Shown here one piece after another: positions 5,224-63,975 of a DNA stretch of 64,000 bases. The stretch lies in sequence record OQ349392.1. The stretch is one strand, 5' to 3'. Numbering within the stretch: position 1 is the stretch's first letter; each line of letters starts with the position of its first letter. Below the pieces are notes generated by a model. It searched no databases, was not told where the DNA came from, and saw nothing but the letters and a program-made list of their open reading frames with translations. The DNA is from Escherichia phage KIT06. Made by a program: the position numbers and the translations under genes.

Positions 5224-5253
5224 GTTTACTTTTCCTCTTGACTGTGGTATAAT
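5224..5253 (+). promoter_or_regulatory. T4 early promoter upstream of regB
   Basis: GTTTAC 5224-5229, 18-nt spacer, TGGTATAAT with TATAAT at 5248-5253; SD GAGGAG then ATG 5281. Confidence 0.6.
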
Positions 5254-5280
5254 TTTTCTATCAGTTAAGAGGAGAATAAC

Positions 5281-5742
5281 ATGACTATCAACACAGAAGT
5301 TTTTATCCGTCGAAATAAGCTCCGTCGTCACTTTGAGTCGGAGTTTCGTCAAATTAACAATGAGATTCGTGAGGCATCAAAAGCAGCAGGGGTCTCATCG
5401 TTTCATCTAAAATATTCTCAGCATCTTCTTGATCGTGCAATTCAACGGGAGATTGATGAGACATATGTTTTTGAATTATTCCATAAAATAAAAGACCATG
5501 TTTTAGAAGTTAATGAATTCCTGAATATGCCTCCACGCCCTGACATTGACGAGGATTTTATTGATGGGATTGAATATCGTCCTGGGCGTTTAGAAATCAC
5601 AGATGGAAATCTTTGGCTTGGATTTACAGTTTGTAAACCTAATGCGAAGTTCAAAGACCCGTCGCTTCAATGCAGGATGGCAATTATCAACAGTCGTCGT
5701 TTACCGGGAAAGGCTTCTAAGGCAGTAATTAAAACTCAATGA
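5281..5742 (+). CDS. regB: RegB site-specific endoribonuclease
   Basis: 153 aa, same length as T4 RegB; sequence recognised (MTINTEVFIRRNKLRR...); own early promoter. Confidence 0.9.
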   Translation: MTINTEVFIRRNKLRRHFESEFRQINNEIREASKAAGVSSFHLKYSQHLLDRAIQREIDETYVFELFHKIKDHVLEVNEFLNMPPRPDIDEDFIDGIEYRPGRLEITDGNLWLGFTVCKPNAKFKDPSLQCRMAIINSRRLPGKASKAVIKTQ

Positions 5743-9010: not shown

Positions 9011-9034
9011 AGTCTCCTTCGGGAGACTTTTTTC
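9011..9034 (+). terminator. rho-independent terminator (UUCG tetraloop hairpin)
   Basis: AGTCTCC TTCG GGAGACT followed by TTTTTT. Confidence 0.75.
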
Positions 9035-9043
9035 ATTTTACCG

Positions 9044-9855: not shown

Positions 9856-9885
9856 GTTTACAAGTTGGCAAGGTTATGGTATAGT
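9856..9885 (+). promoter_or_regulatory. T4 early promoter
   Basis: GTTTAC 9856-9861, TGGTATAGT with -10 at 9880-9885. Confidence 0.6.
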
Positions 9886-10066
9886 AATCTTGTCAACTGC
9901 CAAGGAGAAGAGAATGAAAATTTTGTTTGTTGTGTATGTGATGATTCAATATAATTACCCAATGTTTACTTATAATCTAGTGAACAACATTATTGATATT
10001 ATTCAAAGGAGTATGTAATGACAAATGAACAAGCTTTTAAGTTAAGAGAATTAATTGAAACTTTAA

Positions 10067-12880: not shown

Positions 12881-12906
12881 AGGGAGCCTTCGGGCTCCCT
12901 TTTTTG
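12881..12906 (+). terminator. rho-independent terminator (UUCG tetraloop)
   Basis: AGGGAGCC TTCG GGCTCCCT followed by TTTTTT. Confidence 0.8.
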
Positions 12907-12957: not shown

Positions 12958-12991
12958 ACAACTATCAACTGATGTGGATTTGGGGAATAAA

Positions 12992-13141
12992 ATGAAAACT
13001 ACGTTAATTGAAGTAAAAAAGTTGATTGACACAGAAGAGATTTCAGCTTATTTTGAAAATTTCTTAGAAGATGCAACTGAAGATAACGCGGTTTATCTCG
13101 CTCAGAAAATTATAGAAACATATTTGGAGCAGAATCAATGA
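12992..13141 (+). CDS. hypothetical small protein
   Basis: 49 aa from first ATG (ORF track 12827 is a non-ATG start spanning terminator and promoter). Confidence 0.4.
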   Translation: MKTTLIEVKKLIDTEEISAYFENFLEDATEDNAVYLAQKIIETYLEQNQ

Positions 13142-13401
13142 CAGTTTACGTAGATGTTTTAATGAATCATGGATGGAAACTTCGCGGTCATCCAACTAAA
13201 AATTGTCATATGTTCACTGATGGAGATATTGAAGAGCTTCATGAAATGGCAGAAGCAATAGGAATGAAACGTTCTTGGTTTCAAGATAAACGCATTAAAC
13301 ATTATGACTTACACGCGCGGCGACGCCAAAAAGCCGTAGAACTTGGAGCTGTAGAAGTATCTCGTCGCGAAGCAGTAAAAATTTGGCGAACATTAAAATA
13401 A
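13138..13401 (+). CDS. hypothetical protein (DUF4031-like)
   Basis: 87 aa; recalled resemblance to the DUF4031 family (CHMFTDGDIEELHEMAEAIGMKRSWFQ...HYDL); not verified. Confidence 0.45.
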   Translation: MTVYVDVLMNHGWKLRGHPTKNCHMFTDGDIEELHEMAEAIGMKRSWFQDKRIKHYDLHARRRQKAVELGAVEVSRREAVKIWRTLK

Positions 13402-13404
13402 ATT

Positions 13405-13434
13405 GTTTACAGTAGGGTAGTAGTGTGATACTAT
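13405..13434 (+). promoter_or_regulatory. T4 early promoter embedded in inverted repeat
   Basis: GTTTAC 13405-13410, -10 GATACTAT; flanked by AGGGTA (13413-13418) and TACCCT (13435-13440). Confidence 0.5.
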
Positions 13435-13470
13435 TACCCTATCAAAACAAATGTGAAATTGGAGAATAAA

Positions 13471-14439
13471 ATGAAAACTGTAACTATCAATAAGGGTATC
13501 TACTTCGGTAAAGAAATCTCTGGAACTTTTGAGCTTTTAGGCGAATGGTTCCCAGATAATGCTCCGGTAGATGCACAAGGAGATGGTAAAGTTTTTGTTG
13601 AAATTGACGGTAAACGTCGCGGTGTTTGGGTTTACAAATCAGATATTTCATATGATGGTGTAAAAGTTGAAGAAGTTAAAGAATCATATGAAGATATGAA
13701 AACCCGCATTAATAAAAGATTTAATGTTATGGGAATGATGACGAATGGTATTATTAACGGAAATATTCGTTCATTGATTATCTCTGGCGCAGCAGGTATT
13801 GGTAAAACGTATTCTTTAGATAAAGCTTTAAATAAAGCAAATGATATTGGATACATTGAATATAAAAGCATTAATGGTAAAATCTCTGGTATTGGTCTTT
13901 ATGAACAGCTTTGGAATAATCGTGAAGAGAATTCTGTCCTTTTGATTGATGATGTGGATGTTTTCTCTGATATGGACATTCTTAATCTTCTAAAAGCTGC
14001 TCTGGACACTGGAGAGACCCGTAAAGTCTGCTGGAGCACTGCATCTTCTTACTTAGAAGAAAAAGGCATTGACCGTGAGTTTGAATTTAAAGGAACGATT
14101 GTTTTTATCACAAACGTTGACATTGACCGCGAATTAGACCGTGGTACTAAACTTGCCCCACACTTACAAGCATTAGTGTCCCGCTCAGTTTATTTGGATT
14201 TGGGTGTTCACACTAATGAAGAAATTATGGTCAGGGTTGAAGATGTTATTCTTTCAACTGACATGATGCAAAAGCGCGGTCTTTCTGATGAAGAAACTTA
14301 TAAAGCATTATCATGGATGAAAGTTAATGTTAATCGTTTACGCAATGTTTCACTGCGTACTGCTCTTTATCTTGCTGACTTTATTATGACCGACAAAAAC
14401 GGTTGGGAAGAAATTGCTGAGGTTACTCTTCTGAAATAA
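13471..14439 (+). CDS. AAA+-type ATPase
   Basis: 322 aa from ATG 13471; Walker A ISGAAGIGKTYS, Walker B VLLIDDVD; SD GGAGAA. Confidence 0.6.
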   Translation: MKTVTINKGIYFGKEISGTFELLGEWFPDNAPVDAQGDGKVFVEIDGKRRGVWVYKSDISYDGVKVEEVKESYEDMKTRINKRFNVMGMMTNGIINGNIRSLIISGAAGIGKTYSLDKALNKANDIGYIEYKSINGKISGIGLYEQLWNNREENSVLLIDDVDVFSDMDILNLLKAALDTGETRKVCWSTASSYLEEKGIDREFEFKGTIVFITNVDIDRELDRGTKLAPHLQALVSRSVYLDLGVHTNEEIMVRVEDVILSTDMMQKRGLSDEETYKALSWMKVNVNRLRNVSLRTALYLADFIMTDKNGWEEIAEVTLLK

Positions 14440-14845: not shown

Positions 14846-14875
14846 GTTTACAAGACTGTTCCTCTGTGGTACTAT
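14846..14875 (+). promoter_or_regulatory. T4 early promoter with conserved leader cassette
   Basis: GTTTAC 14846-14851, TGGTACTAT -10 at 14870-14875; 9-bp inverted repeat CTGTTCCTC/GAGGAACAG at 14856-14864 and 14892-14900. Confidence 0.6.
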
Positions 14876-14903
14876 ACAACTATCAACTACGGAGGAACAG
14901 AAA

Positions 14904-15431
14904 ATGAACGCTAAAGATATTTTCAACTTGGTAAATTACAATGATGGTAAATTTAAATCTGAAGCACAGAGTAAGTTCTTTAATGACATCTCAATCGGAG
15001 GTGAAATCACTGTTGATGGAGGACAAATTTACAAATCCCGTTGGAATTGGATCGTTATTATTGATGAGATTGGTATTGTAGAAATTTACAAGAATACGAA
15101 TAAAAATCGTACATTACACTGGTCTCGTGATACTAACGAACAGTACAAAAAGGATAAAGCATCTAAATTATCTCGTGTAACTCAAGAAGATATTGAGTTC
15201 ATCAAGAAAGATATTTTAATGTATGATAACTTAATTGCTGAAGAGCAAGCTGTTATTGATAAATTTGATGAGATTAAAGCTTCTCGTGAAATTCCTGATT
15301 TTATGAAAGAATCAGTAAATGAACGATACACTCTCATTTCAGAGCGTATTGAAACTTACAAAAAGCAAAGAGCTGAACGCCAAAATACTCTTCGGAAGTT
15401 TGAAGAACGGTTAAAGACGGTACTCGCATAA
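14904..15431 (+). CDS. hypothetical protein
   Basis: 175-aa ORF with SD GGAGGAA, charged coiled-coil-like C-terminus. Confidence 0.5.
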   Translation: MNAKDIFNLVNYNDGKFKSEAQSKFFNDISIGGEITVDGGQIYKSRWNWIVIIDEIGIVEIYKNTNKNRTLHWSRDTNEQYKKDKASKLSRVTQEDIEFIKKDILMYDNLIAEEQAVIDKFDEIKASREIPDFMKESVNERYTLISERIETYKKQRAERQNTLRKFEERLKTVLA

Positions 15432-17829: not shown

Positions 17830-17858
17830 TTTACTTTGCCACAAGGATGTGGTATAAT
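17829..17858 (+). promoter_or_regulatory. T4 early promoter
   Basis: GTTTAC 17829-17834, TGGTATAAT with TATAAT 17853-17858; near-identical copy at 63946-63975. Confidence 0.65.
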
Positions 17859-21965: not shown

Positions 21966-21983
21966 TACTTGAAAATAATAAAT

Positions 21984-22014
21984 ACCCTTATCTATTCAAG
22001 GTAAGGGTTTTATT
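21984..22014 (+). terminator. hairpin plus U-tract immediately upstream of gene 49
   Basis: ACCCTTA ... TAAGGGT 7-bp stem (21984-21990 / 22002-22008) followed by TTTATT; may also regulate gene 49 translation. Confidence 0.5.
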
Positions 22015-22488
22015 ATGTTATTGACTGGCAAATTATACAAAGAAGAAAAACAAAAATTTTATGATGCACAAAACGGTAAATGCTTAATTTGCCAACGAGA
22101 ACTAAATCCTGATGTTCAAGCTAATCACCTTGACCATGACCATGAATTAAATGGACCAAAAGCAGGAAAGGTACGTGGGTTGCTATGTAATCTCTGTAAT
22201 GCTGCAGAAGGTCAAATGAAGCATAAATTCAATCGTTCTGGCTTAAAGGGACAAGGTGTTGATTATCTTGAATGGCTAGAAAATTTACTTACTTATTTAA
22301 AATCCGATTACACCCAAAATAATATTCACCCTAACTTCGTTGGAGATAAATCAAAGGAATTTTCTCGTTTAGGAAAAGAGGAAATGATGGCTGAGATGCT
22401 TCAAAGAGGATTTGAATATAATGAATCTGACACTAAAACACAATTAATAGCTTCATTTAAGAAGCAGCTTAGAAAGAGTTTAAAATGA
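22015..22488 (+). CDS. 49: endonuclease VII (Holliday junction resolvase, gp49)
   Basis: 157 aa, same as T4 gp49; MLLTGKLYKEEKQKFYDAQNGKCLICQRELNP... with Cys4 zinc site and HDH motif. Confidence 0.92.
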   Translation: MLLTGKLYKEEKQKFYDAQNGKCLICQRELNPDVQANHLDHDHELNGPKAGKVRGLLCNLCNAAEGQMKHKFNRSGLKGQGVDYLEWLENLLTYLKSDYTQNNIHPNFVGDKSKEFSRLGKEEMMAEMLQRGFEYNESDTKTQLIASFKKQLRKSLK

Positions 22489-24302: not shown

Positions 24303-25125
24303 GTATTATATAATTTATAAAATAACAAATATAATTAATTCAAAGGAATATATCGGTGCGCATAGCACCGATAACATAAATGACGGTTATATGGGGTCAG
24401 GAACATTGATTCGTGCCGCTTTATTAAAATATGGTAGAAAAAATTTTAATAAAGAAATTTTACATGTTTTTGATAATGAAAAACAAATGTATGATAAAGA
24501 AGCTGAACTCGTAACCGAAGAGTATTGTCTAAAAGAAAATACATATAATATTAAACCTGGTGGAAAAGGTGGAACTGCCTATGAACAGACACTTGAACAT
24601 CGCCGCAAAAATAGTTTAGCAAATAAAGGTAAAAAGAGAACAGAAGAAACTAAAATAGCTATTTCACGTGCTTTAAAGAAATATAAACGTACGCCAGAGC
24701 ATCAAGCAAATTTAAATAAAGCCGTAAGCATAGCTATGAAGCGAAAAGATGTTAGAAGTAAATTAGCTGGAGAGCGGTCTGAGAAAGATAAATTATCTAT
24801 ATCAAACGGTGTTAAAAAATATTACAATTCTTTGAGTGAAGAAGAACGCGAACTTCATCGCAAGCGAATTATTGAAGGTAAAAAGAATTCTCCCATGTCA
24901 TTGGAATCTAGACAAAAGCTTTCAAAAGCTTTAAAAGGACTTCAAGTTGGTTCAAAAAATCCAATGTATGGAAAAATTTCTCCAACTAGCAAAACCGTTT
25001 CAGTTGACGGTATTAAATATGATTCAATTAAAAAGTGCTCAAATGCCATAAAAGTTTCTAGACATCTTATACTAAAACGCTGTAATTCTACTGATGAAGC
25101 TTGGAAAAATTGGATATTATTATGA
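24295..25125 (+). CDS. GIY-YIG homing endonuclease (Seg/Mob-like), free-standing between nrdD and nrdG
   Basis: 276 aa; GIY-YIG motifs YIIYKITN...EYIGAHS...GSG...NTYNIKPGG; repeated NUMOD3-like DNA-binding repeats (KNSLANKGKKRTEETK, SRQKLSKALKG). Confidence 0.85.
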   Translation: MHRYYIIYKITNIINSKEYIGAHSTDNINDGYMGSGTLIRAALLKYGRKNFNKEILHVFDNEKQMYDKEAELVTEEYCLKENTYNIKPGGKGGTAYEQTLEHRRKNSLANKGKKRTEETKIAISRALKKYKRTPEHQANLNKAVSIAMKRKDVRSKLAGERSEKDKLSISNGVKKYYNSLSEEERELHRKRIIEGKKNSPMSLESRQKLSKALKGLQVGSKNPMYGKISPTSKTVSVDGIKYDSIKKCSNAIKVSRHLILKRCNSTDEAWKNWILL

Positions 25126-32774: not shown

Positions 32775-34453
32775 AGAATTTTAAACTAAACCGAGTTAGG
32801 TATCAAAATATAATGTCAGTAGGTGGAAATCCTATTGACATTCAACTAGATAAGGTTCAAAAAACTCTTATTACTGGACGAAATGGCGGTGGTAAGTCTA
32901 CTATGTTAGAAGCCATCACATTTGGGCTTTTCGGCAAGCCATTCCGTGATGTAAAGAAAGGTCAATTAATAAACAGCACAAATAAGAAAGAACTTTTAGT
33001 TGAACTGTGGATGGAATATGATGAGAAAAAGTACTATATCAAAAGAGGACAAAAACCAAACGTTTTCGAAATCACCGTTAACGGTACACGTCTTAATGAA
33101 TCTGCCAGCAGTAAAGATTTCCAAGCAGAATTTGAACAGCTTATCGGAATGTCATATGCCAGTTTCAAGCAGATTGTTGTCCTTGGTACAGCAGGGTATA
33201 CCCCTTTCATGGGTTTGTCGACCCCTGCGCGAAGAAAGCTTGTGGAAGACCTGCTTGAGGTAGGAACATTAGCTGAAATGGATAAGCTTAATAAAGCACT
33301 AATACGTGAATTAAATTCACAAAACCAAGTGCTTGATGTTAAAAAAGATAGTATTATCCAACAAATTAAAATATATAATGATAACGTTGAACGCCAGAAA
33401 AAATTAACTGGTGATAATCTTACTCGTCTGCAGAATATGTATGATGATTTAGCAAAAGAAGCTAGAACGTTAAAATCGGAAATAGAAGAAGCTAATGAAA
33501 GATTAGTTAATATTGTTTTGGATGAAGACCCGACTGATGCATTTAATAAAATCGGTCAAGAAGCATTTTTAATTAAATCAAAAATTGACTCGTATAATAA
33601 AGTTATTAATATGTATCACGAAGGTGGATTATGTCCAACCTGTTTGTCACAATTAAGTTCCGGTGATAAAGTTGTTTCTAAAATTAAAGATAAAGTTTCT
33701 GAATGCACGCATTCATTTGAACAGCTTTCAACACATCGTGATAATTTAAAAGTTCTTGTTGATGAATACCGAGATAATATTAAAACCCAACAGACGTTGG
33801 CAAATGATATTCGCAATAAAAAGCAATCTCTAATCACGACTGTAGATAAAGCTAAAAAGGTTAAAGCGGCTATAGAAAAAGCATCATCTGAGTTTATTGA
33901 CCATGCTGATGAAATAGCACTGCTTCAAGAAGAACTTGATAAAATTGTTAAGACAAAAACTAATTTAGTAATGGAAAAATACCACAGAGGAATTTTGACT
34001 GACATGCTCAAAGATTCTGGTATTAAAGGTGCTATTATTAAAAAGTACATTCCATTATTTAATAAGCAAATTAACCATTATCTTAAAATAATGGAAGCGG
34101 ATTATGTGTTTACATTAGATGAAGAATTTAATGAGACAATTAAATCCCGTGGTCGTGAAGATTTTAGTTATGCTTCATTTAGTCAAGGTGAAAAAGCACG
34201 AATTGATATTGCTCTTTTATTTACTTGGCGTGATATTGCTGAAAAAGTTTCAGGTGTTAAAATAAACACACTAATTCTTGATGAAGTTTTTGATTCAGCA
34301 ACTGATGTTGAAGGCGTAAAAGCTATTTCAACTATTTTAGATAGTTTAAAAAATACTAATGTTTTTGTTATTTCGCATAGAGACCATGACCCACAAGCAT
34401 ATGGTCAGCATCTTCAAATGAAGAAAGTTGGTCGATTTACTGTAATGGTTTAA
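32771..34453 (+). CDS. 46: recombination endonuclease subunit gp46 (Rad50/SbcC-like ATPase), GTG start
   Basis: 560 aa as in T4; Walker A GRNGGGKST, zinc hook CPTC, signature SQGE, Walker B LILDEVFD; GTG start with AAGGA. Confidence 0.93.
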   Translation: MKNFKLNRVRYQNIMSVGGNPIDIQLDKVQKTLITGRNGGGKSTMLEAITFGLFGKPFRDVKKGQLINSTNKKELLVELWMEYDEKKYYIKRGQKPNVFEITVNGTRLNESASSKDFQAEFEQLIGMSYASFKQIVVLGTAGYTPFMGLSTPARRKLVEDLLEVGTLAEMDKLNKALIRELNSQNQVLDVKKDSIIQQIKIYNDNVERQKKLTGDNLTRLQNMYDDLAKEARTLKSEIEEANERLVNIVLDEDPTDAFNKIGQEAFLIKSKIDSYNKVINMYHEGGLCPTCLSQLSSGDKVVSKIKDKVSECTHSFEQLSTHRDNLKVLVDEYRDNIKTQQTLANDIRNKKQSLITTVDKAKKVKAAIEKASSEFIDHADEIALLQEELDKIVKTKTNLVMEKYHRGILTDMLKDSGIKGAIIKKYIPLFNKQINHYLKIMEADYVFTLDEEFNETIKSRGREDFSYASFSQGEKARIDIALLFTWRDIAEKVSGVKINTLILDEVFDSATDVEGVKAISTILDSLKNTNVFVISHRDHDPQAYGQHLQMKKVGRFTVMV

Positions 34454-45573: not shown

Positions 45574-47001
45574 GTGGTAGAAATTATTCTTTCTCATCTC
45601 ATATTTGATCAAGCTTATTTTTCAAAAGTTTGGCCATATATGGATTCAGAATATTTTGAAAGTGGTCCGGCTAAAAATACGTTCAAATTAATTAAATCTC
45701 ATGTTAATGAGTATCATAGCGTTCCATCCATTAATGCGTTAAATGTTGCATTAGAAAATAGTTCATTTACTGAAACAGAATATTCTGGTGTAAAAACACT
45801 TATTTCAAAACTAGCCGATTCTCCGGAAGACCACAGCTGGTTAGTAAAAGAAACAGAAAAATATGTTCAGCAAAGGGCAATGTTTAATGCCACGTCTAAA
45901 ATAATTGAAATTCAAACTAATGCTGAGCTTCCTCCGGAAAAACGAAATAAGAAAATGCCAGATGTAGGTGCTATTCCTGACATCATGCGCCAAGCATTAT
46001 CAATTTCATTTGATAGTTACGTTGGTCATGATTGGATGGATGACTACGAAGCACGTTGGCTATCTTATATGAATAAAGCTCGTAAGGTTCCATTTAAACT
46101 CAAAATTCTAAATAAAATTACTAAAGGCGGAGCTGAGACTGGAACACTGAACGTTTTAATGGCTGGTGTTAACGTTGGTAAGTCATTAGGTCTGTGTTCA
46201 TTGGCAGCAGATTATTTACAGCTTGGACATAATGTTCTTTACATTTCCATGGAAATGGCAGAAGAAGTCTGTGCTAAGCGTATTGACGCTAATATGCTTG
46301 ATGTTTCTCTTGATGACATTGATGATGGGCATATTTCTTACGCTGAGTATAAAGGAAAAATGGAAAAATGGCGTGAGAAATCTACTCTCGGTCGTTTAAT
46401 CGTTAAACAGTATCCTACTGGTGGAGCAGACGCTAATACATTTCGATCGCTTTTAAACGAATTAAAGCTCAAGAAGAATTTTGTTCCAACAATCATTATT
46501 GTTGACTATCTAGGTATTTGTAAATCTTGCCGCATCAGAGTTTACTCAGAAAATAGTTACACAACTGTTAAAGCTATCGCAGAGGAATTGCGTGCTCTGG
46601 CTGTTGAAACCGAAACTGTTCTTTGGACTGCAGCACAGGTTGGTAAGCAAGCTTGGGATTCTTCTGATGTTAACATGAGCGATATTGCAGAATCTGCCGG
46701 TCTTCCAGCAACAGCCGATTTTATGCTTGCGGTCATTGAAACCGAGGAGTTAGCAGCTGCTGAACAACAACTCATTAAGCAAATCAAATCACGATATGGT
46801 GATAAGAATAAATGGAATAAGTTTTTGATGGGTGTTCAAAAAGGAAATCAGAAATGGGTAGAAATTGAACAAGATTCTACTCCAACTGAAGTGAACGAAG
46901 TAGCAGGTTCACAGCAGATTCAGGCTGAGCAGAATCGCTATCAAAGAAACGAATCTACTCGAGCCCAGTTAGATGCTTTGGCAAATGAATTAAAATTTTA
47001 G
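45574..47001 (+). CDS. 41: replicative DNA helicase gp41 (DnaB-like), GTG start
   Basis: 475 aa as in T4; Walker A GVNVGKS; GTG start with SD AAGGAG. Confidence 0.97.
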   Translation: MVEIILSHLIFDQAYFSKVWPYMDSEYFESGPAKNTFKLIKSHVNEYHSVPSINALNVALENSSFTETEYSGVKTLISKLADSPEDHSWLVKETEKYVQQRAMFNATSKIIEIQTNAELPPEKRNKKMPDVGAIPDIMRQALSISFDSYVGHDWMDDYEARWLSYMNKARKVPFKLKILNKITKGGAETGTLNVLMAGVNVGKSLGLCSLAADYLQLGHNVLYISMEMAEEVCAKRIDANMLDVSLDDIDDGHISYAEYKGKMEKWREKSTLGRLIVKQYPTGGADANTFRSLLNELKLKKNFVPTIIIVDYLGICKSCRIRVYSENSYTTVKAIAEELRALAVETETVLWTAAQVGKQAWDSSDVNMSDIAESAGLPATADFMLAVIETEELAAAEQQLIKQIKSRYGDKNKWNKFLMGVQKGNQKWVEIEQDSTPTEVNEVAGSQQIQAEQNRYQRNESTRAQLDALANELKF

Positions 47002-47030
47002 TTTACAAGCTGACAGGACTATGGTATAGT
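47001..47030 (+). promoter_or_regulatory. T4 early promoter
   Basis: GTTTAC 47001-47006, TGGTATAGT with -10 at 47025-47030. Confidence 0.65.
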
Positions 47031-47059
47031 AGTCTTGTTGGTTAAATGAGGAGATTGTT

Positions 47060-47242
47060 ATGGAATTGGTAAAGGTAGTTTTTATGGGGTGGTTTAAGAA
47101 TGAAAGCATGTTTACTAAAGAAATCACAATGATGAAAGACGACGTTCAATGGGCTACTACTCAATATGCTGAAGTTAATAAAGCATTAGTTAAAGCTTTC
47201 ATTGATGACAAGAAAGTATGCGAAGTGGATTGCCGAGGGTAA
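47060..47242 (+). CDS. dmd: Dmd-like antitoxin (61.5 position)
   Basis: 60 aa, same size and position as T4 Dmd; SD GAGGAG; identity from recall, not verified. Confidence 0.55.
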   Translation: MELVKVVFMGWFKNESMFTKEITMMKDDVQWATTQYAEVNKALVKAFIDDKKVCEVDCRG

Positions 47243-47243
47243 T

Positions 47244-47486
47244 ATGCATATCGTTTTATTTAAACCTACTCCGTATAATGTCAGGAAAAATACTCAATTC
47301 AAAGCACTTATTGCAGATACGTGGGAATTGGTGTTAGATATTCCAGCAGAAGAAAGTCCTCCATTTGGTCGAGTGGAATTTATTAAGTTTGCTGTGCGCC
47401 CTACGAAGCGGCAGATTCGCCAATGCAAAAGATACTTTCGTAAAATCGTCAAGTTAAAGAAACAGTTATTGATGCTAGTAAAATAG
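47244..47486 (+). CDS. hypothetical basic protein
   Basis: 80 aa from ATG 47244. Confidence 0.45.
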   Translation: MHIVLFKPTPYNVRKNTQFKALIADTWELVLDIPAEESPPFGRVEFIKFAVRPTKRQIRQCKRYFRKIVKLKKQLLMLVK

Positions 47487-47488
47487 TA

Positions 47489-47518
47489 GTTTACAAGCTG
47501 ATAGAGTTGTGTTATAGT
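47489..47518 (+). promoter_or_regulatory. T4 early promoter embedded in 10-bp inverted repeat
   Basis: GTTTAC 47489-47494, TGTTATAGT -10 at 47513-47518; inverted repeat AGCTGATAGA (47496-47505) / TCTATCAGCT (47522-47531). Confidence 0.6.
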
Positions 47519-47549
47519 AATTCTATCAGCTAATCGCGGAGAAAAGAAA

Positions 47550-47804
47550 ATGATGCTAGTTAATAGAGAATATCAGTTTAAATCAGAAGAAGATTTGGAA
47601 AAATTCGCAAGTGGTTGTGAACTGAATAGACGCACAGCTAAAGTCATAGGATTAAAACCCTTTACAGTTCTAGATTGTGAAGTTTCTAAATTCCGCAGAG
47701 GGTGTTCTATTAGCGGTCATGCTCTGGTTGATGGGAACACATTTTTCTTTGTTTTTAGCGTCAGAGAACTTTTATTGATTAACGAACTTGAGGAAATAAA
47801 ATAG
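47550..47804 (+). CDS. hypothetical protein
   Basis: 84-aa ORF. Confidence 0.45.
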   Translation: MMLVNREYQFKSEEDLEKFASGCELNRRTAKVIGLKPFTVLDCEVSKFRRGCSISGHALVDGNTFFFVFSVRELLLINELEEIK

Positions 47805-47862
47805 TTTACTTTTGTTAGAAATTGAGATACTATTATAAACATAAACTACTGAGGAGATTATC

Positions 47863-48156
47863 ATGAAAAAATTTGTTTTTGCTGCAATTTTTGCTTTGGC
47901 TTCTTGTGCTGCTCAGCCTGCTATGGCGGGTTATGATAAAGATTTGTGCGAATGGTCTATGACTGCAGATCAGACTGAGGTTGAAACTCAGATTGAAGCA
48001 GATATTATGAATATCGTTGAGCGTGATCGCCCTGAAATGAAAGCTGAAGTACAAAAACAGCTTAAGTCTGGTGGTGTAATGCAGTATAATTACGTTCTGT
48101 ATTGTGATAAAAACTTCAATAATAAAAATATCATCGCTGAAGTAGTAGGTGAATAA
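47863..48156 (+). CDS. sp: spackle periplasmic protein (superinfection exclusion)
   Basis: 97 aa; signal peptide MKKFVFAAIFALASCAAQPAMA; near-identical to T4 Sp as recalled. Confidence 0.85.
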   Translation: MKKFVFAAIFALASCAAQPAMAGYDKDLCEWSMTADQTEVETQIEADIMNIVERDRPEMKAEVQKQLKSGGVMQYNYVLYCDKNFNNKNIIAEVVGE

Positions 48157-50977: not shown

Positions 50978-51183
50978 AATTTGATTTTTATGCATGGCAA
51001 AAAGCCGGGAGACCGGCTAGTCGAGCATTTGGTTCTGATGGATATAATATTAGAGCCCATTGGAAATTTAATGCTCCAGAAGATTATTCTCCGGTAATTA
51101 TTAACGGCGATGTTGTTATATTAACTAAAATCGGGTATTTTAACGTTCCGCGAGAATTTATTATAAATAATCATGTAATTTAA
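50974..51183 (+). CDS. hypothetical protein
   Basis: 69-aa ORF, ATGA overlap. Confidence 0.45.
   Translation: MKFDFYAWQKAGRPASRAFGSDGYNIRAHWKFNAPEDYSPVIINGDVVILTKIGYFNVPREFIINNHVI
51162..51169 (+). promoter_or_regulatory. T4 late promoter motif upstream of soc
   Basis: TATAAATA about 30 nt upstream of soc ATG; soc is a late gene. Confidence 0.55.
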
Positions 51184-51199
51184 ATAAAAGGAGAATTAC

Positions 51200-51457
51200 A
51201 TGGCTAGTACTCGCGGTTATGTTAATATCAAAACATTTGACCAAGCAGTTGATGGTGGTACAATTCAGGGTAAAGAAATTTCTGTAGCTTTCCCTCTTTA
51301 TTCTGATGTTCACAAAATTTCTGGTGCTCATTATCAGACATTCCCTTCTGAAAAAGCAGCATATTCTACAGTATATGAAGAAAATCAGCGTACTGAATGG
51401 ATCACTGCTAATGAAGGTCTTTGGACTGTTACACCTACACCAGGTGTAGGTGGTTAA
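51200..51457 (+). CDS. soc: small outer capsid protein Soc
   Basis: 85 aa; MASTRGYVNIKTF...GKEISVAFPLYSDVHKISGAHYQTFPSEKAAYSTVYEENQRTEWI near-identical to T4 Soc. Confidence 0.92.
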   Translation: MASTRGYVNIKTFDQAVDGGTIQGKEISVAFPLYSDVHKISGAHYQTFPSEKAAYSTVYEENQRTEWITANEGLWTVTPTPGVGG

Positions 51458-51464
51458 ATAATTT

Positions 51465-51490
51465 AAGGAATCCTTCGGGGTTCCTTTTTC
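51465..51490 (+). terminator. rho-independent terminator (UUCG tetraloop)
   Basis: AAGGAATCC TTCG GGGTTCCTT followed by TTTTC. Confidence 0.8.
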
Positions 51491-58569: not shown

Positions 58570-58599
58570 GTTTACTTCCTCGGTTAGTTGTGGTATTAT
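58570..58599 (+). promoter_or_regulatory. T4 early promoter
   Basis: GTTTAC 58570-58575, TGGTATTAT with -10 at 58594-58599. Confidence 0.6.
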
Positions 58600-58626
58600 A
58601 ACACCATAGCTACTGAGGATAATAAA

Positions 58627-59127
58627 ATGAAAATTTATCGTGTTGAATCATCGTTTAGTATTCTTGATTATGAAGATGCTATAACAATACGTCGAAATCT
58701 TTGTGTTCAAATAACGCCGTACAGGAGTATAATAGATTCATGGAGCGAAGAGTGGTTATTACACGTAGGTTATGACAGACCTAATTTTATGCATCATAGC
58801 GATAATAATAAAAGAATTCCTTTACCACACGAAGATAAACTATTAGTTAAAAACACTAATATAGTAATTAATACTAAGTTCAAGAAAGATTATGTTGGAG
58901 TAGAATATCATATTCCAGGATGGTTTATAGCTCTTTATCATTTTGCTTTCGCTAGTGAATATGATATGATGAGATGGTTCACACGAGAAGAGCGGGAAGA
59001 ATTATCTTCTAAAGGATTTTATCTCGCTGTATACGAAGTTCCTGAAGATGAAGTTATCATTGGCGGGCACCAAGTAATGTTCCGCAAATCGCATGCTGAA
59101 CTCATAGATTTTATTGAAATGAGATAA
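58627..59127 (+). CDS. hypothetical protein (motB position)
   Basis: 166 aa from ATG 58627 with SD GAGGATAA; size/position similar to T4 MotB, not verified. Confidence 0.45.
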   Translation: MKIYRVESSFSILDYEDAITIRRNLCVQITPYRSIIDSWSEEWLLHVGYDRPNFMHHSDNNKRIPLPHEDKLLVKNTNIVINTKFKKDYVGVEYHIPGWFIALYHFAFASEYDMMRWFTREEREELSSKGFYLAVYEVPEDEVIIGGHQVMFRKSHAELIDFIEMR

Positions 59128-59674: not shown

Positions 59675-59704
59675 GTTTACAAACTCTTGGGACCAGAGTA
59701 TAAT
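59675..59704 (+). promoter_or_regulatory. T4 early promoter with flanking inverted repeat
   Basis: GTTTAC 59675-59680, GAGTATAAT with TATAAT 59699-59704; inverted repeat GGGACCA (59689-59695) / TGGTCCC (59704-59710). Confidence 0.6.
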
Positions 59705-59748
59705 GGTCCCGCGGAGTATAAAATCTTTTTAACAAGTGAGAGATAACT

Positions 59749-60240
59749 ATGATTATTAATATTGGTGAAATTGCTCGTGTATCTGATAAATCCCGTTCTA
59801 AAGCAGCAGGAAAATTGGTCGAAATTGTAAGCATTCAGCTTAAACATGGTGTTAAAGATGAAGATTCTGAAGTAAAAGTGCGTATCATTCCTAAAGATGG
59901 AAAGTCTAAACCTCAGTTTGGCTATGTTCGTGCGAAATTTCTTGAATCTGCGTTTTTGAAAGCTGTTCCTGCTAAAGGAATTGAAACAATTGATACTTCG
60001 CATGTAGGTGTAGACTTTAAGTGGAAACTCGGTCAGGCTATTAAGTTCGTTGCTCCTTGTGAATTCGAATTTACCGAAGGTGAGGAAGGGGTTGTTCACC
60101 GTACCCGCGCTATGTGTGCATACATTACCGATCAATGGGTAGAAGATGGCGTTAAGTTGTACAACGCAGTATTTTTAGGAACATACAAAGTCATTCCCGA
60201 AAGTTGGATTAAACACTATAGCAAAGCCCGCTATGCATAA
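59749..60240 (+). CDS. hypothetical protein, paralog of 59130..59672
   Basis: 163 aa; SD GAGAGA; C-terminus ITDQWVEDGVKLYNAVFLGTYKVIP. Confidence 0.5.
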   Translation: MIINIGEIARVSDKSRSKAAGKLVEIVSIQLKHGVKDEDSEVKVRIIPKDGKSKPQFGYVRAKFLESAFLKAVPAKGIETIDTSHVGVDFKWKLGQAIKFVAPCEFEFTEGEEGVVHRTRAMCAYITDQWVEDGVKLYNAVFLGTYKVIPESWIKHYSKARYA

Positions 60241-60270: not shown

Positions 60271-60313
60271 ATCAGTAGTTGATTATGGTACTATATCAAT
60301 ATCAACTACTGAT
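60271..60313 (+). repeat. 13-bp perfect inverted repeat around a -10-like element (promoter stem-loop)
   Basis: ATCAGTAGTTGAT (60271-60283) and ATCAACTACTGAT (60301-60313) flank TATGGTACTATATCAAT; no GTTTAC -35 upstream. Confidence 0.6.
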
Positions 60314-60337: not shown

Positions 60338-60607
60338 ATGGAAAACTTAATTATCATCGAACAATCTTTCAACGATTATGGTATGGCTTACGGTTATCGT
60401 GCGATAATGGAAGATTCTCGTGGATGTGTTATCGATATTGCTGAATGTAAAGATTTACTGCAGCTTTTGAAGACTGTTCGCAAAAATTGGGATTGTGAAA
60501 ACATTAAAGTTCGTGTTGTAACGGAAGAAAAAACTGTTTTTCATGATGTAAAATTTGCCAAAGGTGCTGCTACTCTTCTGAAACGCATCGCTCCACTGTT
60601 CAATTAA
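60338..60607 (+). CDS. hypothetical protein
   Basis: 89 aa from ATG 60338 with leader GGAGAATAAAATG shared with other cassettes. Confidence 0.5.
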   Translation: MENLIIIEQSFNDYGMAYGYRAIMEDSRGCVIDIAECKDLLQLLKTVRKNWDCENIKVRVVTEEKTVFHDVKFAKGAATLLKRIAPLFN

Positions 60608-60620
60608 TGAGGAAATTGTA

Positions 60621-60836
60621 ATGAAACGTAAAATTGTTCAGAACTGCACTAATGACGAATTTGAAGATGTATTATTCGATCCAGATTTGGTAGTAGTTCA
60701 AAAGGAACACACCATTAAGTTTACTCACTTGACTTCGGTTTATGTTTATGAAAAGGTTGGTGATAAACAGCCAATTTACGGTGTATTTCGTGAAATTACT
60801 GAAGATGGCACAACTTACTGGAAGGAAATTTATTAA
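60621..60836 (+). CDS. hypothetical protein
   Basis: 71-aa ORF, SD GAGGAAA. Confidence 0.5.
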
Positions 60837-61240
60837 TGGCTATTAAATTTGAAGTTAATAAATGGTATCAATTTAAAAATAAACAAGCTCAAGAAAATTT
60901 TATTAAAGACCATACTGATAACGGAATCTATGCACGACGTTTAGGTATGGAACCTTTTAAAATTTTAGATGCTGATTATCTTGGGCGTCCTACTAAAATT
61001 GTGACATCCACAGGTGTACTCAAACGTTGTGCCGGCGCTGATATCCTTGACGAAAACTTTATCTGGCTCTCTACTAACGAAGCTGGGTTCTTTGATGAAG
61101 TGGAAAATCCATACCAAGCTTCTGAAGAGCAAGAACAAATAGAAGATTTCACAGAATTCCCTGTCATGAAAGTTACTATTGAAAATAATGAACAGGCATG
61201 GTCTTTGTATCAGATGTTGAAAGCACACTTTAAGGAATAA
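60836..61240 (+). CDS. hypothetical protein
   Basis: 134-aa ORF, TAATGG overlap. Confidence 0.5.
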
Positions 61241-61421: not shown

Positions 61422-61793
61422 ATGTTTAAAATCGGTAAGAAATATCGTGTTCGCGAAGGTGAAGAAAAGAAATATCTACTTTCTTCTATTTATAGGAATG
61501 GTTCTATTAATGCCGTAATATCTACAAGTGAATTTATCGTTGAAGATATGAAAGGTAATAATGTTACAATGATTAGTACAGCATCTGGAAATGATGGAAA
61601 AATTCTTCATAGTTTTCAGGGTAATGTTCTAATTTATGATGAAGAATTTGACTTCTTCGAAGAAGTTACAGAAGATTTTGATTTTGAATGCACTATCACT
61701 ATGAAATCTGGTGACCCTCTTTCTTTTACAGTTAAAGATGAAAGAAGTCGCTTGAGAATTATTAGTCTCCTTCAAGCCATTAAATTTAAGTGA
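61422..61793 (+). CDS. hypothetical protein
   Basis: 123 aa from ATG 61422 (track start 61416 is GTG). Confidence 0.5.
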   Translation: MFKIGKKYRVREGEEKKYLLSSIYRNGSINAVISTSEFIVEDMKGNNVTMISTASGNDGKILHSFQGNVLIYDEEFDFFEEVTEDFDFECTITMKSGDPLSFTVKDERSRLRIISLLQAIKFK

Positions 61794-63946: not shown

Positions 63947-63975
63947 TTTACTTTACCACAAGGATGTGGTAAAAT
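63946..63975 (+). promoter_or_regulatory. T4 early promoter (near-duplicate of 17829-17858)
   Basis: GTTTAC 63946-63951, ACAAGGATGTGGTAAAAT; differs from the 17829 promoter at two positions. Confidence 0.6.

Follow-up and report, generated by a model that had tools for sequence, protein, structure and literature searches.

Conserved hairpins around T4-type early promoters of Escherichia phage KIT06

Promoter stem-loops of T4-type phages and the KIT06 locus

Promoter-early stem-loops (PeSLs) combine an early promoter with a stem-loop, which is positioned mostly between the -35 and -10 elements or overlaps the -10 element and contains G-T pairs (Arbiol et al. 2010, PMC2839356). The stem-loop of an RB49-type PeSL placed between a promoter and lacZ cut expression about as much as rrnB T1 (PMC2839356). 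PeSL-PeSL recombination has been reported, with flanking PeSLs giving mini-circles (PMC2839356; Comeau et al. 2014, PMC4122927), and the second of these studies extended PeSLs to the PST/T4 pair. As far as the work of Repoila et al. (1994) is related in PMC2839356, weaker AT-rich analogues are present on T4 early promoters in T-even phages, at internal-protein loci. In a second group of described elements, those of the T4 genes e, soc, 49, and I-TevI, the promoter lies inside a hairpin that masks the translation of long transcripts, whereas promoter-proximal transcripts are open (PMC3014915). Here, inverted repeats bracketing early promoters are described in a stretch of 64,000 nucleotides from Escherichia phage KIT06 (record OQ349392.1; the whole stretch is referred to as the window), with the promoter at 47489 as the focal site. 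The hairpins formed by these repeats are a genuine, selected feature of a kind previously described in T4-type phages. The finding is a member of a known element class, the PeSLs, and the link of this class to genome shuffling has already been published.

The window originates from a Tequatrovirus. The surroundings of the focal site match 585 phage records and are 98% identical to Tequatrovirus genomes, vB_EcoM_G4498 among them. The early-gene strand is the + strand, on which the nine hairpin elements described below are located, and its genes are ordered e, regB, mobD/nrdC ORFs (open reading frames), 49, 55, 47-41, dmd, sp, 61, 56, soc, modA/B, dda, motB, and 39. The focal T4-type early promoter (47490-47518) is composed of the -35 element TTTACA (47490-47495), a 17-nt spacer with the TGn motif, and the -10 element TATAGT (47513-47518). 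It matches ten of 12 consensus positions, TG included, and the segment GTTTACA, 17 nt, TGnTATAGT (47489-47518) has AAAATAGTA before it. Perfect 10-bp arms, AGCTGATAGA at 47496-47505 and TCTATCAGCT at 47522-47531, are placed around the -10 element, and the repeat reaches 13 nt at 92% complementarity when lengthened. As RNA, the segment 47496-47531 folds into a 14-bp stem (47496-47509 with 47518-47531) that includes two G.U pairs and is closed by an 8-nt loop with most of the -10 element. The folding energy of -18.0 kcal/mol (z -4.3) was equalled by none of 200 shuffles. From the usual distance of 7 nt, the start site is predicted near A47525, within the right arm. The Shine-Dalgarno (SD) and start region (47538-47552) contains GGAG at 47538-47541, an A-rich tract, and the ATG at 47550, and its part GGAGAAAAGAA (47538-47548) resembles the RegB/S1 target consensus GGAGAAUAAAA (consensus from PMC1702504). 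The hairpin leaves the focal SD unpaired, as the stem ends at 47531, 6 nt 5′ of the SD region. The predicted accessibility of this SD is 0.56 on the promoter's own transcript and 0.74 on read-through RNA.

The organization known from PeSLs, with an AT-rich upstream region, an early promoter, a stem-loop at the -35/-10 elements, and then an SD and the start of a small ORF, is present here in all its parts. As in PeSLs, the elements are located in variable regions beside indels between close relatives, where promoter and ORF form a cassette, although the association with indels was observed at two of nine sites. The stems of RB49 and phi1 are G/C-rich (GGGG...CCCC) and their promoters are of the TTGACA/TATAAT type, whereas the stems in the window are AT-rich and promoter-specific, and belong to GTTTAC-type promoters. 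Furthermore, a figure legend of 2014 places the PST/T4 stem-loops 'just upstream' of the promoter, a description that is fitted better by the UUCG terminators of the window at 9012, 12884, and 51467. The hairpin of gene e contains the late promoter TATAAATA at 1540 in its loop and the SD in its 3′ arm; the same late promoter is found at 51162 for soc, and gene 49 is similar. The textbook hairpins of e (1531-1560), soc (51172-51202), and 49 (~21975-22016) folded as expected and served as positive controls. The early promoters of regB, nrdC.8, and motB.2 have the same organization as gene e: the 5′ arm precedes the start site, the core of the promoter falls within the loop or close to it, and the SD or AUG is part of the 3′ arm. 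The start site, the position of which was inferred, is located 3′ of the 5′ arm at all sites. In contrast, the 3′ arm contains an SD or start codon at 5225, 14847, and 58571, but not at the focal site, which leaves the SD free together with the other sites of its geometry. The known cases embed late promoters and hold expression back to the late phase of infection, whereas the promoters described here are sigma-70 early promoters, which would confine output to the early burst.

The T4 RefSeq record has no annotated promoter or stem-loop features, no map of T4 start sites turned up in the literature, and Rfam gave no match at the gathering threshold across the whole window. Hairpins at early promoters are absent from reviews that cover early transcription in T4 and from those on five T4-like genomes, although earlier descriptions may exist. 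The literature examined, beyond which older descriptions may likewise exist, contains no co-variation or statistical evidence, sense-strand bias, early SD-masking subclass that includes regB, experimental support for masking at early promoters, or observation that the T-even stems are devoid of terminator features.

Placement, folding, and co-variation of the hairpins

The heptamer GTTTACA occurs 21 times in the window, compared to 11.3 expected occurrences. The + strand contains 20 early-promoter-like sites (pattern TTTAC[AT], 15-17 nt, TAnnnT), which in most cases are followed by an SD and ATG at a distance of 55-75 nt. All four inverted repeats listed in the preliminary description of the window, at the focal, nrdC.8, motB, and 13406 promoters, were found at the positions given there, and at least five further promoters, at 5225, 9857, 47002, 58571, and 60286, share the arrangement. 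The observation is thus confirmed and broader than first noted: about 40% of the strong early promoters in this phage lie within a conserved inverted repeat. The hairpin sites fall in the mobD-nrdC, dmd-61.x, and motB regions, and the core replication block is without them. ORFs of 34-322 aa begin within 55-75 nt 3′ of the hairpin promoters.

Perfect repeats of at least 9 bp with loops of 3-40 nt are present 32 times in the window, compared to ~16 in first-order Markov shuffles; a single one is unremarkable. What exceeds chance by a wide margin is the placement of the arms around the -10 element, which was evaluated for 19 window promoters of the GTTTAC..TAnnnT type as the duplex energy of the spacer (after TTTAC to the -10 element) with the 30 nt 3′ of the -10 element, with a threshold of -15 kcal/mol. 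Seven of the 19 promoters reached the threshold with their own downstream sequence, compared to 4 of 342 mismatched pairs (1.2%) and 0.26% of shuffles, and the observed own-pairing value was attained by none of 20,000 permutations in the window. At the same threshold, T4 has 8 of 26 own pairs and 5 of 650 mismatched pairs, and RB69 has 5 of 29 own pairs and 28 of 812 mismatched pairs.

Eight promoter segments fold as RNA into hairpins of 13-18 bp with energies of about -18 to -24 kcal/mol and with the -10 element in or beside the loop. Their z-scores relative to dinucleotide shuffles are -3.6 to -6.3, and 0-1 of 200 shuffles equalled each of them. The hairpins begin 1-4 nt from GTTTAC, in four cases at the eighth base of GTTTACA-N. 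When the four sites of the preliminary description were folded as DNA, both strands exceeded shuffles (z -2.1 to -5.0), and the non-template strand was always the better one. Folding beyond that of shuffled controls, which was one of two properties by which the preliminary description proposed to judge the repeats, is therefore observed for both RNA and DNA.

The deviations from perfect pairing are distributed asymmetrically between the strands. Among internal helix positions with Watson-Crick neighbours, there are 12 G.U pairs on the sense strand, no A.C, and one other mismatch; one promoter entered this count twice, from T4 and from the window, and the ratio without it is 10:0, with an estimated p of ~0.002. 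The sense RNA folds ~8 kcal/mol better than the antisense RNA in the eight window hairpins, compared to ~1.5 kcal/mol in hairpin-free promoters. The 12 G.U pairs against no A.C, together with the advantage of the sense strand, point to a sense-strand fold, most simply RNA, and not to a symmetrical cruciform or a double-stranded protein-binding palindrome. The DNA hairpins have energies of only -7 to -11 kcal/mol, and the template strand is weaker at all four sites of the preliminary description. The loops of the predicted folds are 5-15 nt long, and 8-27 nt separate the perfect Watson-Crick arms.

The second property, conservation of the arms in homologous promoters, is also observed, as the arms are kept or co-vary in paralogs and orthologs. 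Variation within Tequatrovirus is small and comprises five pair-preserving changes, each of A-U or G-C to G.U, and three pair-breaking ones. Promoters of the same geometry as the focal one (class B, described below) could be aligned without gaps in 13 cases, namely the dmd, mobD.2, and focal paralogs and an RB69 family, which share a 15-bp helix. In this helix, 89.2% of the alignment cells pair, compared to 81.0% in shuffled alignments (reached by 0 of 500 shuffles), and slid controls pair at 24-63%. Seven of the 15 pairs contain changes on both sides, and double changes are found in 20 cells, compared to 9.1 expected (0 of 500 shuffles).

Co-variation is also present at promoters in which the 3′ arm is the SD. 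A search for RegB in IMG/VR provided 11 loci of three clades, and in the alignment of their promoters, anchored on the SD, the three clades have three different stems, TTTTCCTCTTGACTG/CAGTTAAGAGGAGAA, TTCTCCTCTAGTTG/CAACTAGAGGAGAA, and TCTCCTGTAAG/CTTACAGGAGA, with six stem columns that are fully compensatory. In RB69, the repeats at motB.2 and denV still include the SD but differ in sequence, and the repeat of the motB.2 ortholog is 13 bp long; hand-made alignments of these two promoters, the register of which is unreliable, do not enter the evidence. In the RB69 homolog of the class-B motB promoter of T4, GAGAGC/GCTCTC replaces GGGACC/GGTCCC between identical flanks, which corresponds to two compensatory pairs. 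Searches of IMG/VR gave only one locus for ORF84, the ORF controlled by the focal promoter, and five loci for Dmd, all of them from close relatives.

At least six RB69 (NC_004928) early promoters, at 76797, 76444, 69239, 67944, 57674, and 19005, share ATAGGACTA-TGTTATAG-TAGTCCTATCAAAAC. As these promoters contain the same bracketing repeat, the hairpin belongs to the consensus of a promoter subfamily in RB69.

Two hairpin geometries and their possible function

The elements are probably T4-type PeSLs in which a strong sigma-70 early promoter is built inside a hairpin. The 5′ arm is located within the -35/-10 spacer at every site, where it would be largely free to vary under promoter function, with the -10 element inside or adjoining the loop; the 3′ arm would fall within the first 10-30 transcribed bases. 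Because the 5′ arm is in the spacer, the promoter's own transcript cannot contain it, and only RNA from upstream can fold. With a start site between or within the arms, the own transcript would have an open leader, whereas RNA reading through from upstream promoters ('delayed-early') would carry both arms and could form the hairpin in vivo. A scan of 46900-47950 identified no terminator-like site, and thus none between the dmd promoter and the focal promoter, so that read-through into the focal promoter is expected.

The hairpins can be divided into two classes. In class A, the 5′ arm directly follows the -35 element (TTCCTC...) and the 3′ arm is the SD. The regB promoter (5225-5283) contains TTTTCCTCTTGACTG at 5230-5244 and CAGTTAAGAGGAGAA at 5262-5276, with the -10 element at 5248-5253 and the ATG at 5281, and its SD-sequestering RNA hairpin has -22.4 kcal/mol (z -5.8). 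The nrdC.8 promoter (14847-14906) has the stem 14856-14870/14886-14900, the -10 element TACTAT at 14870-14875, the SD in the 3′ arm, and the ATG at 14904, and its hairpin reaches -23.2 kcal/mol (z -6.3). Its perfect arms are CTGTTCCTC (14856-14864) and GAGGAACAG (14892-14900), and the right arm includes the SD of the next gene, GGAGG, exactly as had been noted in the preliminary description. The SD-sequestering hairpin of the motB.2 promoter (58571-58629; -23.7 kcal/mol, z -5.5) is formed by 58577-58594 and 58603-58619, with the SD GAGGAU in the 3′ arm and the ATG at 58627; judged by its map position, this promoter is presumably the T4 promoter P8.1. Outside the window, class A is represented by T4 denV and by the RB69 promoters of regB, denV, motB.2, and ORF041c and the promoter upstream of mobD.2a.

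In class B, the stem hugs the -10 element, the 3′ arm spans approximately +1 to +12, and the SD follows 4-20 nt further. In addition to the focal promoter, this class includes the promoters of dmd, mobD.2, and motB and the promoter at 13406. The dmd hairpin (47002-47043; z -3.6) has a 15-bp stem formed by 47008-47022 and 47029-47043, and the mobD.2 hairpin (9857-9898; z -4.3) has a 15-bp stem formed by 9863-9877 and 9884-9898, with a 6-nt loop in the -10 element; the mobD.2 promoter of T4 contains a perfect 14-bp repeat. The promoters of dmd and mobD.2 are paralogs of the focal one (GTTTACAAGYTGA...). The promoter 5′ of an nrdC.10-like ORF (13406-13441; z -4.5) has the repeat 13413-13424/13430-13441 tightly around the -10 element TACTAT (13429-13434). 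The preliminary description gave this repeat as 6 bp in 13413-13440; the repeat is there, but its perfect arms, TAGGGTA (13413-13419) and TACCCTA (13435-13441), are 7 bp long and end at 13441, and they extend to 12 nt at 92% when lengthened. The motB element (59676-59751; -24.4 kcal/mol, z -4.6) has the stem 59683-59695/59704-59717 with the -10 element TATAAT (59699-59704) in the loop, and perfect arms GGGACCA (59689-59695) and TGGTCCC (59704-59710). Its outer stem pairs the leader GGAG at 59713-59716, and a second small hairpin (59723-59744) covers the motB SD. Class B elsewhere comprises T4 ipI and the RB69 family of at least six promoters with ATAGGACTA..TAGTCCTAT.

The dmd (47001-47038) and mobD.2 (9856-9893; T4 57990-57953) promoters are 89% identical over 38 nt and are located ~37 kb apart. 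The differences between their stems are compensatory, and copies of promoter modules seem to have spread through the genome.

A ninth element (60271-60313, promoter at 60286) has the longest perfect repeat at a promoter, the 13-bp ATCAGTAGTTGAT/ATCAACTACTGAT around TGGTACTAT, with a weak -35 element TATACA. It is positioned between motB and cef, 5′ of a small ORF starting at 60339, and was missed by the GTTTAC-based search and found by a looser scan.

RegB efficiently cuts the SDs of T4 regB and motB.2 and moderately that of nrdC.8, cleaves the T4 motB leader at GGAGUAUAAAA, and is inhibited by secondary structure (PMC1702504, PMC3014915). The GGAG that corresponds to the motB leader site in the window is the one paired in the outer promoter stem. 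Read-through copies of class-A genes would be translated poorly and would escape RegB, an enzyme that cuts GGAG, in the same logic as that of genes e, soc, 49, and I-TevI, here at early promoters. The predicted SD accessibility decreases from the own to the read-through RNA from 0.52 to 0.23 for regB and from 0.37 to 0.23 for nrdC.8, and class-A read-through copies would plausibly be untranslatable and RegB-resistant. Masking of the SD as the sole explanation of the hairpins was rejected, as it fails for class B, including the focal site, where the predicted SD accessibility is unchanged or higher. On read-through RNA, the class-B hairpin would most likely punctuate the transition from one gene to the next, either by attenuating what is expressed downstream or by making an RNA end more stable. 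At the focal site it could attenuate downstream expression, as did the RB49 stem-loop in the lacZ assay, or protect RNA ends near the RegB-type site GGAGAAAAGAA.

A more general form of the proposal, which is put forward tentatively, is that hairpin-embedded sigma-70 promoters act as a transcript-form switch in Tevenvirinae for at least a third of the early genes. The leader would be open, and thus translatable and RegB-cleavable, on a gene's own immediate-early RNA and closed on read-through RNA. Such a switch would confine output to the first minutes of infection and buffer RegB and its targets. If true, a design known from four textbook late genes (e, soc, 49, I-TevI) would apply to an entire class of promoters that includes the promoter of regB itself, kept with compensatory changes in at least three clades. 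The expression of T4 early genes would then depend on which promoter made the RNA, besides promoter strength, and moving a promoter+ORF cassette would also move its insulation. This would matter for the reading of phage transcriptomes, the annotation of hundreds of T4-like genomes, and the engineering of therapeutic phages. The proposal offers a testable reason for the presence of such leaders at the RegB targets regB, motB.2, and nrdC.8. The practical gain is modest, since both these elements and their connection with genome shuffling are already on record.

Several observations weigh against the interpretation of the elements as selected, RNA-level promoter hairpins with a masking or punctuating role. 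The focal cassette is at least 99% identical in 73 of 74 records, and because of this near-identity the focal arms yield no co-variation, so that the support comes from paralogs. In the pairing test of the class-B alignment, relatedness alone can beat shuffle controls without any structure. The pair-breaking changes within Tequatrovirus include an A.C in the dmd stem of T6 and the loss of outer nrdC.8 pairs in T4 and T6. The class-A repeats of RB69 are perfect palindromes whose antisense strands fold equally well, and the strand bias is thus not universal. SD masking does not account for class B, and the nrdC.8 promoter belongs to class A in T4 but to class B in RB69, a change which suggests that what the sites share in function may be the hairpin as such and not SD masking. 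At all the promoters, the start sites are assumed positions, placed by sequence. Hairpin promoters are not depleted behind upstream terminators, although terminators are few (Fisher p = 1). No U-tract is present 3′ of any hairpin, where the sequence is A-rich instead. The terminator role proposed by the authors of the PeSL studies is thus unsupported by the rules for intrinsic terminators, and the label 'terminator' misfits the T-even versions.

The published reading of PeSLs as attenuators or insulators, in which the stem-loop stops or strongly lowers upstream transcription and isolates each cassette, is rather unlikely to account for the KIT06 elements. The lacZ result cited above is in its favour (PMC2839356), as are the short intergenic gaps of variable regions in which the hairpins lie and the change of class at nrdC.8 between T4 and RB69, since either geometry would serve. 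The hairpins resemble intrinsic terminators as stable intergenic stem-loops on the sense RNA, but differ in their AT-rich stems, loops of 6-15 nt, and missing U-tracts, and the segment 46900-47950 is free of terminators. The phage uses canonical terminators where needed, as indicated by the UUCG structures with T-runs at 9012, 12884, and 51467. Furthermore, the lacZ assay was performed with a G/C-rich RB49-type stem and did not separate termination from effects on RNA or translation, and the expression of T4 middle genes depends on the extension of early transcripts (PMC2988021). Class-B hairpins could instead shield the upstream message from 3′ exonucleases after a RegB or RNase E cut at the nearby GGAG, a role that appears unlikely though less so than the others weighed here. 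Class-B hairpins end 4-11 nt before GGAG and an A-rich tract that fit the RegB consensus at the focal and mobD.2 promoters, although the gap is 20 nt at 13406 and the dmd tract is not A-rich. That SD accessibility is not lowered at class-B sites agrees with such protection, and so does the reported nuclease sensitivity of read-through, delayed-early RNA, which would need it (PMC2988021). The case is indirect throughout, however, and leaves class A unexplained. RegB products may already be poor exonuclease substrates, which counts against this role.

A role of the repeats at the level of DNA is improbable. Cruciforms or strand hairpins in supercoiled DNA could be hotspots of recombination or of cleavage, for example by the T4 endonuclease VII, for which cruciforms are substrates, or could alter promoter melting by exposing the -10 element single-stranded in a loop. 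The elements are inverted repeats for which, at the four sites mentioned above, either DNA strand folds more stably than its shuffles, the repeats at 60271-60313, T4 mobD.2, and the RB69 class-A promoters are perfect palindromes, and the class-B -10 elements lie in loops of 6-8 nt. The cruciforms suggested in the preliminary description are nevertheless not supported. The mismatches are G.T on the sense strand only (12:0), which become A.C on the template strand and weaken its folding, and the antisense RNA is ~8 kcal/mol worse. The arms are short for their spacing, and cruciform extrusion is energetically unfavourable for arms so weak and so far apart. A purely DNA role leaves unexplained why the class-A 3′ arm is always the SD, the class-B stem would bury the last -10 bases (T at -7), which sigma-70 needs, and the cassette junctions lie in direct repeats of the -35 region or the SD/ATG region and not in the inverted repeat. 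It is very unlikely that the repeats have no function and arose by chance or as a by-product of an extended consensus or of duplicated modules carrying a palindrome. Repeats of 9-10 bp are common in the window (the 32 against ~16 given above), and the arms are partly consensus-like, with AAGCTGA in the spacer and CTATCAACT downstream. At least six RB69 promoters share ATAGGACTA..TAGTCCTAT, and mismatched pairs score well there (28/812); furthermore, 74 genomes contain the focal module as nearly identical copies. This reading is largely refuted by the permutation test in the window and its repetition in T4, by the compensatory double changes between paralogs and orthologs, by the non-Watson-Crick positions, which are nearly all G.U, and by the regB, motB.2, and denV hairpins kept across genera with different stems. 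The least probable reading is that of operators, palindromes to which a dimeric protein of phage or host would bind to shut off the early promoters. The repeats are centred on the -10 element with arms 9-10 bp apart and resemble repressor operators, and the mechanism of early-promoter shut-off has been described as not fully understood (PMC3014915). Judged by sequence, operators are disfavoured, as the arms differ wholly between promoters (AGCTGATAGA, CTGTTCCTC, GGGACCA, TAGGGTA, TTCCTCTTGACTG, ATCAGTAGTTGAT), co-vary instead of keeping a half-site consensus, and are spaced by 5-27 nt, and G.T positions would break a double-stranded half-site. The preliminary description had offered regulatory hairpins next to cruciforms, and the hairpin-forming elements around the early promoters are real and look regulatory.

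Promoter cassettes and other elements of the window

The focal promoter, its SD, and ORF84 (47550-47804) form a 330-bp cassette at 47468-47796 that is an insertion when compared with T4 and T6. The direct repeats AAAATAG(TA)GTTTAC on its two sides are the -35 regions of the focal promoter and of the sp promoter (47805), and the cassette was found in 74 of ~830 related records. The direct repeats would, from their sequence, permit the formation of mini-circles. In ECP2301 and Hafnia phage IsaacDaniel, an identical 65-bp promoter module, extending to GCGGAGAA, drives an unrelated ORF of 60 aa. The 13406 promoter is part of another cassette (~13000-13459), which comprises a 49-aa ORF and the promoter and is missing from T4. 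This cassette is flanked by a 19-nt direct repeat, GG(A/G)GAATAAAATGAAAACT, at 12982-13000 and 13461-13479, which contains an SD, ATG, and the first few codons. The promoter of this cassette is similar to that of T4 trna.4.

Cassette behaviour was thus observed at two of the nine hairpin sites, the focal one and 13406. Breakpoints between the window and T4 coincide with early promoters in 4 of 48 cases, compared to ~5% expected in a rough count; the enrichment is not significant, and the evidence for recombination is therefore anecdotal. Promoter modules of ~50-65 bp repeated through the variable regions may provide short direct homology for the gain, loss, and swap of promoter+ORF cassettes. 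The recombination hotspots envisaged in the preliminary description find partial support in the two cassettes, which agree with the published model of PeSL shuffling and would have moved by way of direct repeats and not of the inverted repeat. The hairpin promoters accordingly appear to be regulatory or recombination modules, and not cruciforms.

ORF84 has weak similarity (37% over 41 aa; E 6e-8 in a four-protein set) with the N-terminal part of T4 GoF. The RefSeq label of ORF84 is 'goF mRNA metabolism modulator', and the true goF is located at 60836-61237. The short GoF-like paralog adjoins dmd, which is likewise a gene of RNA metabolism.

The UUCG-tetraloop terminators with T-runs span 9012-9035, 12884-12905, and 51467-51490 (e.g. 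GTCTCCTTCGGGAGACTTTTTT) and are located directly 5′ of the promoters 9045, 12929, and 51501. These three promoters, with their terminator-then-promoter layout, have no bracketing hairpin, but the association lacks significance (Fisher p = 1).

Perfect inverted repeats of 11-12 bp are also present away from early promoters, at 24419-24454, 34050-34096, and 61600-61649 (e.g. CTTTATTAAAAT/ATTTTAATAAAG), and all of them are AT-rich. The unrelated promoters at 17830-17858 (nrdC.4) and 63947-63975 (rIIA.1) share the near-identical core GTTTACTTT(G/A)CCACAAGGATGTGGTA(T/A)AAT. Unlike the bracketing repeats, this core forms a small hairpin, CCACA-AGGA-TGTGG, that is contained entirely within the spacer.

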